Shown here: in pieces, positions 16,176 to 60,223 of the stretch | How the letters are laid out: each line of letters opens with the position of its first letter | How positions within the stretch are numbered: position 1 is the stretch's first letter | DNA from: Ignavibacteriota bacterium | Lineage (GTDB): Bacteria > Bacteroidota > Ignavibacteria > Palsa-1295 | Reading direction: 5' to 3' | NCBI GenBank assembly: GCA_963787835.1 | Contig: CAWBEI010000002.1 | Span: 640,001 to 704,000 of the forward strand | DNA: 64,000 nt | The notes under the pieces: generated by a model | Database searches by the model: none | Told to the model about the DNA's origin: nothing | What the model saw: only the letters and a program-made list of their open reading frames with translations | Program-made: the position numbers and the translations under genes

Positions 16176-17654
16176 ATGTCTAGCCCACCCCTTAAACGCG
16201 CGCTCGGTCTTTACGCTACGACAGCCCTCGTCATCGGCTCGGTCGTGGGATCGGGAATTTTTTCATCTCCATCACAGATGGCGCGCGATCTGCCAAGCGC
16301 GCCGTATCTGATGGGGGTGTGGGTGCTCACCGGTATCCTGACACTCTTCGGCGCGTTCACGCAATGCGAACTTGTCGGACAAATGCCCAAGACTGGCGGA
16401 CTCTACGAATACTTCCGCGAAGTCTATGGTGAAGGACTCGGCTTTCTCTATGGATGGGCAAATTTTATGATCGCCGGAAGCGGAGCAATCGCGGCGATTA
16501 GCTTTTTCTTCGCACAGTATTTCGAGAATTTTACCGCGCTGCCACATTTTACGCACGCACTAACATTTCTTGGAGTGACCGAGGATACGCCATGGAATAT
16601 CCCGCTGCTCGGCGCCATTTTTCCCTATCAATTCTTGGGAAGGAAGTTAGTTGCATCGTTCCTCGTGGTGTTTCTGACAGCGCTAAATGTTCGAGGAGTA
16701 AAGCTTGGCGGAACAGTGCAAAGCATCTCGACCACAGCAAAAATGCTTGCCATTCTTGCCATCGTGCTTGTGGCATTCATTGCTGGATCGCATGTGGGTT
16801 CAACAGCTAATTGGAGCCATGCAGGAACCGCCGGCACATCACTGATCGGCTGGCCGCTTATTGGCGCTATTGCTCTTGCAATGTCCGGAGCATTCTGGTC
16901 CTATGATGGATGGGGAAATGCGGCATACATTGCTGGTGAAGTGCGCGAGCCACAAAAGATCATTCCTCGCGCTATCATTCTTGGTACGCTTACATTCATC
17001 GGACTCTATCTCGTCGTTAACCTTGCCTACTTCTATATCCTTTCTGTCGGAGGCGTTGCAAATGCACCCGGCGACCGCGTGGCTTCGCAAATGGTTTTCG
17101 CTGTTGTCGGATCCGGAGGCGCTGGAATTATAGCCGTTATTATGATGCTCTCGGCGTTCGATACTACAAACTCCACTGTGCTGACCAACGCCCGCGTGTA
17201 TTATGCCATGGCGCGCAACGGACTGTTTTACCGCAAGAGCGAGGAAGTTCACAAGAAATTCCAAACTCCGCATATTGCCTTATTTTTGCAGGGTGGGTGG
17301 TCTATTATTCTGCTTGTGACGGGATCCTTCGATCTTATCGTCAGCATGTATGTGTTCGTCAATTGGGTACTGTATGCGCTGATGGCGATCGCTGTTTTTA
17401 TCCTGCGCAAACGCAGGCCCAGTGCGGAGCGTCCATTTTCGGTGCCGGGATATCCGTGGGTTCCCGCGATCTTTGTGCTGTTTGCAAGCGCGTATGTTAT
17501 CATTACGCTTGTGACGGATATTCAGGCATATCAGGCCGGAACCCAGCCACTCATCCGCAGCGTGACCGGCATGGCGCTGGTGCTAACGGGATTGCCGTTC
17601 TATTATTATTGGCGATGGAAACGACGAAAGAAGTTGATAGTGGATAACGGATAG
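16176..17654 (+). CDS. APC-family amino acid permease
   Basis: GSVVGSGIF, PKTGGLY, WSYDGW and ARVYYAMA; many TM helices. Confidence 0.9.
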   Translation: MSSPPLKRALGLYATTALVIGSVVGSGIFSSPSQMARDLPSAPYLMGVWVLTGILTLFGAFTQCELVGQMPKTGGLYEYFREVYGEGLGFLYGWANFMIAGSGAIAAISFFFAQYFENFTALPHFTHALTFLGVTEDTPWNIPLLGAIFPYQFLGRKLVASFLVVFLTALNVRGVKLGGTVQSISTTAKMLAILAIVLVAFIAGSHVGSTANWSHAGTAGTSLIGWPLIGAIALAMSGAFWSYDGWGNAAYIAGEVREPQKIIPRAIILGTLTFIGLYLVVNLAYFYILSVGGVANAPGDRVASQMVFAVVGSGGAGIIAVIMMLSAFDTTNSTVLTNARVYYAMARNGLFYRKSEEVHKKFQTPHIALFLQGGWSIILLVTGSFDLIVSMYVFVNWVLYALMAIAVFILRKRRPSAERPFSVPGYPWVPAIFVLFASAYVIITLVTDIQAYQAGTQPLIRSVTGMALVLTGLPFYYYWRWKRRKKLIVDNG

Positions 17655-17727
17655 TGGAAAGTTTGGAAATCTTGCTGCCCAAATCTTCTTTATCCACTCT
17701 CCGTTATACACCATACACTATCAACTA
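17634..17727. repeat. Inverted heptamer arrays (TGGATAG-like / CTATCCA-like)
   Basis: 17634-17661 ttgatag tggataa cggatag tggaaag includes the permease stop; 17690-17724 ttatcca ctctccg ttataca ccataca ctatcaa. Confidence 0.75.
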
Positions 17728-17729
17728 TT

Positions 17730-56420: not shown

Positions 56421-57761
56421 ATGCACTCTCGTTCATTCGTCGCTAGTATTCTTTTCACGTTATCGCTGACAGGCACCGTACTCGCGCAATCCGGAACCGT
56501 ACTGGATACTCGCCGCGACCTCACAAAACGCGACGAACGCTTTAGCTTGCAGTCCGCCAATGGAAGCGCGGCCATCACGATCAAGAATGTGGATATTACC
56601 CACTTCCCGGACATGAGTATCATCTTCTCTGCCGTTGACCGCCGGAATAATTTCATCCGAACGCTGCAGAAAGAAGACCTCGTCGTCCTCGAAAATGGGA
56701 TCGAGCGGCCGATCCTTTCGCTCGACCTCGTCAGCGGCGAAAACCGGGTTCCCATCGACATCGTCTTTGTGATCGATCAAACCGCTTCCATGGGCGATAT
56801 GATCGGAACCGTCAAGGAGAATGTCACGCAATTTGCCGAAGAGCTTTCCCAGCATGGATTCGATTACCGCCTGGGCTTAGTCCGCTTCAGCGATATTGTG
56901 GAATGGAAAAGCCCCACACTTACCGATGACATTTCAGAATTTGAAAAATGGGTGGCGGATATTCAAACCGTCGGCGGTGGCGACCCCAAAGAAAATGCCC
57001 TCGAAGGACTGCATGCCATGAACGACATGCCATTCCGGCCCATCGCGATTCGTCTGGCTGTGCTCATCACGGATGCACAATGCCACCAGCAAGGCGAACA
57101 AGGCGATGGCACCACTGACTTTACTATGAAAAGCATGGGCGACTGGCTTTATCAGCGTGATGTCCGATTGCTCACCGTTACGCCGCCTGAATACCCCGAA
57201 TACCATGCCATGGCATTTGCAACCGATGGCGCGAGCTTCGATCTTGGCAAGAGTTTTGCTAACTCCGTCGAAGATCTCGCAAATAGCGTCACCAGTCTGT
57301 ACTCGCTGAAATATCTTTCGCAATCGACCCTCGTGCCAGATTCCGTTCACTTAGATCTCTTGCGTGCTGAGGATCATTCCGTGCTCGCAAGCAGAAAACT
57401 GCTTGGCATCGAACCAGGAAGACGTTTCGTCTTCGAGGATCTCCAGTTTGCTCCAAATCAAACTCAGCTCCTGAACGAGTTCATCCCCGAACTTGAGCGC
57501 GTCGTTCGCTTGATGCACGTTCGCCCCTCCATGCGAATTCGGATCGAAGGACATGCCGATTCCACCGGTCTTCCCGAAGTGAACATGAAGCTCTCCGAAG
57601 AACGGGCTGTCGCCGTGAAGCGCTATCTGATGCAATCCGGTATTGCTCCAGATCGCATCGAAACCAAAGGCATGGGCTCCACTCATCCCGTCGCTACAAA
57701 TGCGACGGAAGCCGGACGCCGCCTTAACCGCCGCACTGAGTTCGTGATACTCACGAAATAA
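56421..57761 (+). CDS. VWA domain + OmpA domain protein
   Basis: MIDAS-like IDQTASM, GGGDPKE and LITDA; EGHADSTG, LSEERA and NRRTEF. Confidence 0.85.
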   Translation: MHSRSFVASILFTLSLTGTVLAQSGTVLDTRRDLTKRDERFSLQSANGSAAITIKNVDITHFPDMSIIFSAVDRRNNFIRTLQKEDLVVLENGIERPILSLDLVSGENRVPIDIVFVIDQTASMGDMIGTVKENVTQFAEELSQHGFDYRLGLVRFSDIVEWKSPTLTDDISEFEKWVADIQTVGGGDPKENALEGLHAMNDMPFRPIAIRLAVLITDAQCHQQGEQGDGTTDFTMKSMGDWLYQRDVRLLTVTPPEYPEYHAMAFATDGASFDLGKSFANSVEDLANSVTSLYSLKYLSQSTLVPDSVHLDLLRAEDHSVLASRKLLGIEPGRRFVFEDLQFAPNQTQLLNEFIPELERVVRLMHVRPSMRIRIEGHADSTGLPEVNMKLSEERAVAVKRYLMQSGIAPDRIETKGMGSTHPVATNATEAGRRLNRRTEFVILTK

Positions 57762-58451
57762 GTGATCGCTCGCCAAAATACATTCCTCACTCCCGAACTG
57801 GTGCTCGATGCGTACCGCCAAGGACTGTTCCCAATGGCCGATGCGCGTGGCGCAATCAGTTTCTATGCCTACGACCCACGAGGCATTATTCCACTCGATG
57901 ATCGATTCACCGTTCGTCGTTCCCTGCGTCATGTTTTAGAAAAAAAGAATTTTCGCGTTACATTCGATACCGCTCCGCTCGAAATCCTGCGTGGCTGTGC
58001 CCGCTTCGAAGAGAACATTCCCCCTGAGGAACGATGGCTCACCGAAGAACTCATCGAGCTGTATCTAAAGCTCTTTGAACTAGGTTACATGCACACCGTC
58101 GAAGTTTGGGGCATAATGGATAGTGGAAAGTGGATAGAGGATAACAAAGAGTTACCATCCGAACACCAGCCACCCACCGTCAACTATCCACTATCAACTA
58201 CCCTGATCGGTGGACTCTATGGCCTCACCTTCGGCGCGGCATTTTGTGGCGAGTCGATGTTCTCCCGCGCCCCTTACGCCTCACAGATAGCTCTGGTGTA
58301 CCTCGTCGAGCGGCTGCGCAGAAAAGGCTTCCAACTGCTCGACGCCCAAATGCCAAGCGAGCATCTCCAGCAATTCGGACTCTACGAATGCTCGCAGGAG
58401 CAGTATCTTCCGTTATTCCAAACCGCCGCAAAAATGGATGTAAAGTGGTGA
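57762..58451 (+). CDS. aat: Leucyl/phenylalanyl-tRNA--protein transferase with repeat-derived insertion
   Basis: AYRQGLFPM, DPRGII, HTVEVW, GGLYG, FCGESMFS and LLDAQ. Confidence 0.92.
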   Translation: MIARQNTFLTPELVLDAYRQGLFPMADARGAISFYAYDPRGIIPLDDRFTVRRSLRHVLEKKNFRVTFDTAPLEILRGCARFEENIPPEERWLTEELIELYLKLFELGYMHTVEVWGIMDSGKWIEDNKELPSEHQPPTVNYPLSTTLIGGLYGLTFGAAFCGESMFSRAPYASQIALVYLVERLRRKGFQLLDAQMPSEHLQQFGLYECSQEQYLPLFQTAAKMDVKW

Positions 58452-58532
58452 GCAATCACTCTATTTCCTATCCCAATTTATTGTCTACAAGAAATAGGTG
58501 CCATTTCTTTTTCTTGCTGAGTTCCCGACTAC

Positions 58533-58795
58533 CCTCGAATTTAGGCCAAATTCGCCATTTGAGGCAAAAGTTATTCACAATTCACTTTCGCGAAGAACTC
58601 GTTCATAACGAAAGCTGCCTTCCCCTCTATTTTCAATGAACTCCCCATTCTTCCCTGATCCCGAAAATCTGTAAATCGAGGTCCATCTTTCATACTTCAT
58701 CTTTCATCTTTTCCCCCGAGGGTGCCCATCACAGTAGATACTAATATACGCACATTATATCCAGAAGTCAAGTGTTTTCCGAAAATAATCGAAAT
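58533..58795 (-). other. Promoter-bearing repeated element, copy 2
   Basis: Minus-strand TTGACT-17-TATATT; blocks shared with 38561-38829. Confidence 0.6.
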
Positions 58796-59206
58796 TTATC
58801 GATTTGGAGGAAGCCATTCAACCTTGACGCCACGATGTTCCACATTCTCGAACTCTCGATCTCCGGTGAGGATTGGAGTGTCGCGTTCCAGTGCGAGCGC
58901 GGCAGCAAAACAATCGGCATACGACAGGCCGCCATCTGCTTTTAATCGAGCAGCAGAGATCATAACATCGAAACCCGGCATGATAACTTCTATAGGAAGG
59001 GAGCGGATGGTCGCCCGTATTTCCTCGGCTGCACGCTCACCTTTCCTCCGTAGAACAGTGTAATACACTTCGCCAAAATTAATCCCTGAAAGTAAGTGGA
59101 AGTAACCGCCATTGGCGGCGTTATCGAGATGGTTGAGGACGATCCCCGAACCCGTTTGATTCAGGAAAAGAGTGAGGAGAGAAAAACTATCGAGGATGAA
59201 GATCAT
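58796..59206 (-). CDS. vapC: VapC PIN-domain toxin
   Basis: FILDS, INFGEVYY, LSYADCFA and ILTGDREF. Confidence 0.9.
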   Translation of the reverse strand: MIFILDSFSLLTLFLNQTGSGIVLNHLDNAANGGYFHLLSGINFGEVYYTVLRRKGERAAEEIRATIRSLPIEVIMPGFDVMISAARLKADGGLSYADCFAAALALERDTPILTGDREFENVEHRGVKVEWLPPNR

Positions 59207-59486
59207 GGTCCTCCCGGTTTCGTTCGACCTTTTTTTCTTCGAGATAGGAGTCGAACATGGACTTGTCAGTGCCAAGGAGTCCAACGGACTTCTGTATGGC
59301 TTCTTTCATCCGGTCGAGTTCTGGTGATAGTGCTGGCATTTTTATGATAATTTCAGATTCCCGATCCTCGATCATTACCTTAGAACCAGTGTGAAGCCCA
59401 TGCCGCGATCTCACGGGGTCCGGAAGATCGAGATGACCTTGGGAATCGATGATTGATTCATAAGCTCTGTCCATAGTTAAGTCCAA
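59187..59486 (-). CDS. AbrB/MazE-fold antitoxin
   Basis: IDSQGHLDLPDPVRSRHGLHTGSKV; overlaps the vapC start. Confidence 0.8.
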   Translation of the reverse strand: MDLTMDRAYESIIDSQGHLDLPDPVRSRHGLHTGSKVMIEDRESEIIIKMPALSPELDRMKEAIQKSVGLLGTDKSMFDSYLEEKKVERNREDHDLHPR

Positions 59487-59523: not shown

Positions 59524-59561
59524 CTTCTTACTTCTTACCTCTTACCTCTTACTTCTTACCT
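59524..59561. repeat. Heptamer array CYTCTTA x5
   Basis: cttctta cttctta cctctta cctctta cttctta; same family as 13690-13790. Confidence 0.85.
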
Positions 59562-59574
59562 CGGCGAAGCCGGA

Positions 59575-59612
59575 AACCACCTCCGATACCGTAATAAGCT
59601 TCATGACTTCTT
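59575..59612. repeat. Direct-repeat copy of the GT9 3' end (partner at 60310-60348)
   Basis: AACCACCTCCGATACCGTAATAAGCTTCATG identical over 31 bp, then ACTTCTT after a 1-nt indel. Confidence 0.9.
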
Positions 59613-59628
59613 GGAGCGATTCCTTTCA

Positions 59629-59654
59629 ATTTGTTGTAATATGTTACAACAAAT
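59629..59654. promoter_or_regulatory. Probable higBA operator
   Basis: Perfect 11-bp arms ATTTGTTGTAA-tatg-TTACAACAAAT abutting the higB ATG. Confidence 0.65.
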
Positions 59655-59940
59655 GCATATCATCACTCGGAAGCGCCTTAACGAGTTTGTCGAGAGACAT
59701 CCGGATGCCTTCACGGGTTTCGATGAATGGTACCGCAAGGCCAAGCGAGCAAAATGGCAAAATTTTGCCGAGCTTAAGGCGACGTTCGGCTCCGCAGATC
59801 TGGTCGGAAGATATATTGTCTTTAATATCGGCGGCAATAAATTTCGACTCATTGCAAGCCTCCGATACCAACGGCAGAAAGTATATATCAGAGCATGCTT
59901 AACGCATAAGGAATACGATGAAAACAAATGGAAAGACTAA
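59653..59940 (+). CDS. higB: HigB toxin
   Basis: MHIITRKRL, TFGSADLV, VFNIGGNKFRLI and THKEYD..KW. Confidence 0.92.
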   Translation: MHIITRKRLNEFVERHPDAFTGFDEWYRKAKRAKWQNFAELKATFGSADLVGRYIVFNIGGNKFRLIASLRYQRQKVYIRACLTHKEYDENKWKD

Positions 59941-60223
59941 ATTAAAATCCGAGAGTAGTGCCGTCATGGCATGGACTCCGTCCTCGCACATCATCAATGT
60001 TCCCGCAAACGAAGCAGAGTACAATGAATTAGTTGCCGTGCTCGATTATTTGCTCGACACCAGCGATCCCGATGAACAAAGCCCGGCCGCTGCGTTAGTG
60101 GATATGATCGGCTCACTCATCGAAAGCTACGAGAACGCAAACGTGCCCGAACTTTCAGCTCCCCGCCGCAAAAGCCGCGCACATCGCCCCATCATTACTC
60201 CTCGCCAATTTAAAGCAGCTTAA
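59918..60223 (+). CDS. HigA-like antitoxin N-domain, lacking a recognisable HTH
   Basis: NEAEYNELV..LDYLLD..LIESYE matches the HigA toxin-binding half; the protein ends in a basic tail. Confidence 0.65.
   Translation: MKTNGKTKLKSESSAVMAWTPSSHIINVPANEAEYNELVAVLDYLLDTSDPDEQSPAAALVDMIGSLIESYENANVPELSAPRRKSRAHRPIITPRQFKAA

Follow-up and report, generated by a model that had tools for sequence, protein, structure and literature searches.

An in-frame inverted heptamer element, probably the gene-less remnant of a four-helix-bundle cassette, in the leucyl/phenylalanyl-tRNA-protein transferase gene of an Ignavibacteriota bacterium

Short palindromic DNA that lies in frame inside conserved genes has been described for the Rickettsia palindromic elements (RPEs) and for the intragenic GTAG/CGTC REPs, which add 20-30 or more residues to their host proteins and, in the available passages of the two sources, are argued to be tolerated in loops and linkers (PMC10969869, PMC3733652). 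As far as the latter source was available, REPs at one and the same site are described only for recB of Xanthomonas, the other genes carrying them at different sites (PMC3733652). Dispersed 7-base repeats are known as TAACTGA heptamers from the Beggiatoaceae, Cyanobacteria and Bacteroidetes (PMC4679880) and as GGGAATC heptamers from Xanthomonas, where they form inverted convergent pairs (PMC4692102); according to parts of both papers, such units sit at gene junctions, place stops in all frames of one strand and are few in ORFs. Moreover, the intervening sequence (IVS) of the 23S rRNA of Coxiella burnetii, with its S23p gene, is described in part of PMC4990558 as a heptamer-repeat inverted stem around a PF05635 gene. 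The available portions of PMC4679880 and PMC4692102 contain no link of heptamer repeats to four-helix-bundle genes, the term 'four helix' is absent from PMC4692102, and the part of PMC5524665 at hand merely lists such genes. Our search, mostly of open-access main texts, found no paper in which four-helix-bundle cassettes with heptamer arms are described anywhere but in rRNA.

The element described here lies in the aat gene within a 64,000-nt stretch of the genome of an uncultured Ignavibacteriota bacterium from soil (hereafter the window, to which coordinates without a genome handle refer; the genome itself is G000). Like the RPEs and intragenic REPs it is short palindromic DNA in frame in a conserved gene, and its relatives form a dispersed palindromic repeat, some copies of which are intergenic while others lie in frame within conserved genes. 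It differs from them in that its arms are tandem heptamers, which come in many unit families and are tied to four-helix-bundle cassettes, and in that three genes of this lineage (aat, xseA and valS) reuse one loop each across families. The arms in aat, 28-42 nt of tandem heptamers, are also unlike the short G+C-rich stem of the GTAG/CGTC REP-RAYT system; the outer end of the element reads GTAG antisense, which may be chance. With the dispersed heptamers the family shares 7-base units at gene junctions, stops in all frames of one strand and scarcity in ORFs, but the in-gene copies in the available part of PMC4679880 lie mostly at protein ends, whereas five of the nine here are mid-protein. The layout of the Coxiella IVS is that of the putative donor of the aat insert, except that the donor cassette lies between protein genes and not in rRNA, while the aat copy is gene-less, antisense in its mRNA and inside the reading frame of a protein gene. 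Of the marks of a MITE, namely terminal inverted repeats, a target-site duplication and a cognate transposase, inverted arms are present, and neither a visible duplication nor a cognate transposase was found. In-frame palindromic inserts are already known and a single case is modest; what this case adds is an insert traceable to one cassette of the same genome that still carries its gene; mother and daughter together connect the bacterial heptamer repeats, so far unexplained, with the uncharacterised four-helix-bundle (S23/IVS) proteins.

The gene occupies 57762..58451 on the plus strand and encodes, in an open frame of 229 aa, a leucyl/phenylalanyl-tRNA-protein transferase (Aat). In a family-model search the product exceeded the cut-offs of both PF03588 (Leu_Phe_trans) and TIGR00667, the latter with a whole-protein score of 170.5 bits against an equivalog cut-off of 143.55, and each match was broken into two stretches at the insert. 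The source names of the homologues point to Candidatus Kapaibacterium. Residues E164, D194 and Q196 were invariant in 40 aligned sequences and correspond to E156, D186 and Q188 of the E. coli enzyme, which we take to be its key conserved residues. The basic tRNA-binding helix of L/F-transferase, described as R76, R80, K83 and R84 in part of PMC4105747, is partly kept, with R53 and K61 at the positions of R76 and R84, and H57 and E60 at those of R80 and K83. ClpS is present in the genome. The gene upstream of aat (56421-57761) encodes a protein with VWA and OmpA domains, and ends one base 5' of the aat start codon, an arrangement that suggests co-transcription of the two genes.

The preliminary description had claimed an insertion of about 27 residues in Aat, made from an inverted heptamer element, at a place where only a short turn normally joins the flanking motifs. 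All of this was borne out. The insert (58110..58202, plus strand) comprises 31 codons, G117-T147, between W116 and L148, and is in frame with a net gain of 81 nt. Aligned with the E. coli L/F-transferase, the stretch from W116 to T147 holds 30 residues against the three of the turn after W135, a net gain of 27 residues; in 16 of the 17 next-best homologues (P0003-P0019) the loop has four residues against 31 here, which again gives +27 aa, or 81 nt. The purine-rich arm (58113..58154, plus strand) consists of six heptamer units of the ATAGTGG type, the inner two degenerate, and the pyrimidine-rich arm (58174..58201, plus strand) of four units of the CCACTAT/CAACTAT type; the arms are 81-85% complementary. 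Both arms were thus at the place noted earlier, but the extent given for the purine arm was too short. Nine nucleotides beside that arm, considered as a unique spacer, were rejected as such and are degenerate arm units. The true spacer (58155..58173, plus strand) has 19 nt, at a position where the loaded cassette has a 360-nt gene. Assignment of the insert to the same family as an element near 17634-17727 was likewise confirmed, the latter (17632..17729, plus strand) being a strongly folding sister at a gene junction that shares the unit family and has no stop-free frame. The insert junctions show no visible target-site duplication, no empty aat allele of its own lineage was found among the relatives and metagenome contigs compared, and a search of 57900-58500 gave no Rfam match at E <= 1.

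The best non-self BLAST match of the element lies about 460 kb from aat, at C2:1157191-1157232 (38/42 identical, E 6e-9), and starts exactly at the stop codon of a 120-residue TIGR02436 gene. The purine arm at 58113-58154 is the reverse complement of the 3' end of this cassette, and six units correspond between the two sites without any change of order, the two degenerate inner units included. Within it, a 16-mer (58139..58154, minus strand) that starts with the TAA stop codon of the cassette gene occurs in the genome only at aat and at G000:C2:1157217-1157232, and in none of 14 congeners, though several of them carry arms of this family. Because of the donor match at the stop codon and this private 16-mer, the insert is likely a cargo-less remnant of the cassette in antisense orientation. 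However, the 16-mer was picked after both copies had been seen, and what makes it up are degenerate arm units; gene conversion, whichever way it ran, therefore fits equally well, and conversion between this cassette site and aat would leave the same trace. The outer end of the pyrimidine arm, read antisense, matches the 5' arm of the corresponding cassette in congener G012 (22 matches, with one 2-nt gap), and the 58155-58173 spacer has no match to the end of the donor cassette gene. The aat element accordingly shows the inverted arms of a cassette with the purine arm first; between them lies no PF05635/TIGR02436 gene, only the 19-nt spacer, and of the gene it holds the stop-codon end alone. 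The genes on either side of the donor cassette are, we assume, pntA and pntB.

Such cassettes are a recurrent feature of the genus. Five of the six PF05635 four-helix-bundle matches in G000 are framed by inverted heptamer arms, as judged by eye, and across the genus 18 of 30 four-helix-bundle loci passed a strict test for arms, which none of 316 small genes passed, a control that has no internal positive because it did not recover the cassette genes of G000 itself. The insert in xseA equals the arm of a second cassette at 31 of 31 positions, and two other elements match that arm too. An inverted heptamer arm pair at G000:C2:451050-451786 surrounds about 670 nt, in which the reading frame is something other than a four-helix-bundle gene and possibly another cargo. 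At G003:C25:10149-13448 a congener has a four-helix-bundle gene with arms of the aat family and, after it, a short arm pair that is complete; this locus may represent a stage between the loaded and the empty form.

Genome-wide scans showed how widely the repeat is dispersed. Three-unit arrays of this unit with up to three mismatches numbered 35 in G000 and 0 in a block-shuffled copy. When inverted pairs were sought with no unit specified, period 7 yielded 88, and periods 8, 10 and 11 yielded 0 (at period 5 the 1894 pairs made the control too permissive to use; two of 11 in-gene calls at period 7 were G+C-rich chance matches and were dropped). In a further scan, with the unit families drawn from these results, the purine arm came first in 71 inverted pairs and the order was reversed in seven. 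By the gene calls of our own simple gene finder, nine of the 71 purine-first elements are inside genes, 35 extend over a gene end and 27 fall between genes. The family of the aat element has 14 paired copies, four of them inside genes. Mid-protein hosts are aat, xseA, valS, a XerC-like recombinase (G000:C2:371627-372706) and an alpha-glucan phosphorylase (G000:C2:814656-816872), the last two also carrying the element in frame; four other proteins have it N-terminally, where start codons are uncertain. As in Aat, the family models of xseA and valS break at their inserts. Since 7 is not a multiple of 3, most purine arms have stops in every frame: open frames made up 26 of the 372 in 62 non-genic elements, 47 of which had none, and the aat element has a single stop-free frame out of six, the one read by aat. 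This stop-codon filter accounts for the presence of one and the same DSGKW...YPLST peptide in unrelated proteins, and annotators should expect such peptides in this lineage.

We therefore consider, with a probability of about 0.68, that aat carries in frame an inverted heptamer element, likely a gene-less cassette remnant, which is predicted to be translated as a neutral, disordered extension of a surface beta-hairpin in a likely still active Aat. A copy of a resident cassette, or of its arms, would have entered aat at the DNA level in antisense orientation, with the cassette gene left out on entry or deleted later. Copying of arms by recombination or by template switching between them is the leading guess as to how. 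Selection would then keep only insertion events with a stop-free frame read by aat, and the peptide would lengthen the tip of a hairpin with the fold intact. Once filled, the loop may serve as a larger neutral landing pad that is prone to deletion, in which inserts decay, collapse and are replaced by other hairpin families through nesting, giving a safe-haven cycle. A wider proposal, which we put forward tentatively, is that the cassettes are transposase-free mobile elements that seed gene-less arm pairs, the aat insert being a recent daughter of one resident mother cassette, and certain protein loops being long-lived slots that mobile hairpins from unrelated families can occupy, leave and occupy again. 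If true, transposase-free cassettes would account for much of the unexplained 7-base repeat excess in bacteria, and the mobile-cassette reading would give the S23/IVS protein family a role.

The behaviour of the same loop in other Aat proteins bears on these proposals. Among the best 120 homologues, 66 have a loop of four residues (P0054 among them), 42 one of 6-15 and 11, the query included, one of 23-39, with P0049 unparsed. An alignment with orthologues, proposed as a check in the preliminary description, showed the long loops of other Aat proteins to be non-homologous to the insert described here: those that can be assigned belong to other repeat families, and two distant loops of 25 and 30 residues are unrelated. 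The latter belong to two distant Aat proteins and have no obvious heptamers at the same site. Changes of length are tolerated in distant Aat proteins too: in metagenomes, the loop exceeded four residues in 37 of 73 parsed loci among the matches listed, which included few close relatives. In the genus, aat was matched in 13 of the 14 other genomes, with four residues in six, 6-11 in five and long inserts in two, G005 with a related heptamer insert whose right arm varies in copy number and G009 with a C-rich palindrome in the same position that is REP-like and not built of heptamers. Family labels were assigned by eye, for most of the Aat proteins on the basis of the peptide only. The 11 long-loop proteins are scattered on a tree built without the loop, where a single clade for them was rejected (p-AU 1e-46, at least seven changes); a single origin for P0001 and P0002 was not rejected (p-AU 0.08). 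Reversion of the loop is likely as well because P0034, with four residues, is nested among long-loop proteins. On these comparisons, the Aat loop is filled repeatedly and independently by different repeat families. In the class, aat was matched in 231 of 251 genomes, five of the matches listed being split: those of G000 and G005 by inserts, those of G157 and G250 into overlapping pieces, which are likely frameshifts, and that of G247 by a contig break. Insertion of a whole four-helix-bundle domain into Aat was considered and rejected, PF05635 being found in none of 20 longer homologues, which is weak evidence.

Loops in two further genes are reused in a similar way. The heptamer insert of xseA (G000:C2:845642-846985) lies inside the catalytic domain, and in 13 genomes its loop holds a heptamer family in five, REP-like inserts in four, another longer sequence in one, a collapsed form in one and a short form in two. 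The collapsed heptamer remnant belongs to congener G003. In valS (G000:C3:267240-270068) a repeat insert occupies a loop 5' of the anticodon-binding domain; across 15 genomes this loop holds at least four full repeat families with 10 family changes on the tree, each family is rejected as a clade, and no clearly empty loop was found among the 15 congeners. The valS gene of congener G006 is frameshifted. In G013 the REP-like insert comes directly after codons that open a heptamer insert in the sister genome G011, which suggests that it is nested in an earlier heptamer insert. Allele swapping with long flanks was rejected at valS, since pairs that share a family showed no greater similarity in their 60-nt flanks than the remaining pairs (the upstream windows of G003 and G006 are invalid in this comparison owing to indels), and swapping may act over very short tracts. 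The pntA-pntB junction (G000:C2:1157150-1157720) has the loaded cassette in G000 and G012, two of 11 genomes, while the other congeners have at least three other palindromic families or almost nothing, in places as little as 3 nt; judged by these alleles it is an intergenic slot that also swaps families.

Reuse of the loops in aat, xseA and valS, together with the cassette at the pntA-pntB junction in two of 11 genomes, could also be explained by an actively mobile, site-seeking cassette whose protein, with or without a host enzyme, copies the arms into preferred DNA or RNA targets. The excess of purine-first over reversed pairs and the private junction, which suggests recent copying, agree with it. 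We nevertheless regard it as doubtful, as unrelated non-heptamer, REP-like families enter the same loops, which one targeting enzyme would not explain. Moreover, the cited literature, as far as available, gives no catalytic role for the four-helix-bundle protein, and a search of G000 (98% complete) for a reverse transcriptase gave none, although six of the 15 genomes of the genus have a match. Ten Y1 transposase matches are present in G000.

It is less probable still that the element acts in the mRNA like a 23S rRNA intervening sequence, its arms pairing and being cut by RNase III so that the level of aat is tuned. The heptamer-repeat terminal stem of the Coxiella IVS is cleaved by RNase III according to the available part of PMC4990558, the intergenic sister elements fold strongly, and 17 of the 47 tRNA genes in G000 have a heptamer element within 25 nt. 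The aat copy, however, folds weakly (z = -1.8, with 7 of 200 shuffles as good; the intergenic sister has z = -5.8) and lies further from the consensus, through drift, than the copies in the relatives X5 and X6; furthermore, six of 13 congeners manage with the four-residue loop. Folding of the RNA alone is weak evidence for the aat element.

That the arms formed where they now are, through slippage and copying templated by a hairpin and without any donor cassette, is very unlikely. In its favour, several unit families are one step apart and the copy number of arms varies in relatives, as in the right arm of G005. Against it stand the six units, two private variants among them, that recur in unchanged order in a cassette about 460 kb away, the private 16-mer common to both sites, and the occurrence of the family at 14 paired sites.

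Returning to the reading of the insert as a neutral extension, its effect on the protein was predicted by AlphaFold2 with a 40-sequence alignment, structure prediction having also been proposed earlier. Mean pLDDT was 87.8 and fell to about 50 at residues 121-140, which are placed with low confidence at the tip of a hairpin, between strands 110-120 and 145-157. The model agrees in fold with E. coli Aat (TM 0.74-0.75; for 2dps, Z 26.1 and rmsd 1.9 A over 195 aligned residues), and by alignment the key residues are the same. The insert is thus predicted to replace the short beta-turn by a disordered surface extension of the beta-hairpin, with the fold intact. Compared with X5, a relative about 92% identical, 5 of 7 changed codons in the insert alter the amino acid against 7 of 24 in the core, a count that rests on the differences listed and not on all 62. 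Fisher p for these differences was 0.078 for X5 and 0.053 when pooled with X6, both above 0.05, so drift of the insert codons relative to the core is suggestive. Since these codons tend to drift, the insert is probably a neutral passenger like the RPEs of Rickettsia. The aat copy here is likely decaying, because X5 and X6 share four insert bases nearer the family consensus.

An adaptive loop that alters the binding of substrate, tRNA or a partner would agree with the length, which is kept gap-free in X5 and X6, and with the recurrence of long loops, which 10 more of the 120 best homologues possess. Yet it is hard to credit, the loop sequences being unrelated between lineages with at least seven gains or losses, and the insert being modelled with low confidence and rich in amino-acid changes. 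A dead aat gene or an assembly artefact can largely be dismissed: 58057-58238 is spanned gap-free, at 10 differences, by contig X6-3 of a separate study, two overlapping contigs of X5 cover the insert, and as these independent contigs carry it the insert is not an assembly error; in addition, the frame is open, the conserved residues are intact and 17 of the 24 changed core codons relative to X5 are silent among the differences listed.

Aat is small, single-domain, structurally solved and assayable, and in this one loop natural alleles derived from different repeat families have 4, 23, 29, 31, 34 and 39 residues, so the neutrality of loops written by repeats is directly testable. Elsewhere in the window, two heptamer arms that lack a partner and differ in unit family (58683-58715 and 59524-59561) flank a small two-gene module on the minus strand (58796-59486), presumably an AbrB/PIN-like toxin-antitoxin pair, and the next pair, at 59611-60223, we take to be HigB/HigA-like. 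Three genes of the GxxExxY type (PF13366) are also present in G000.
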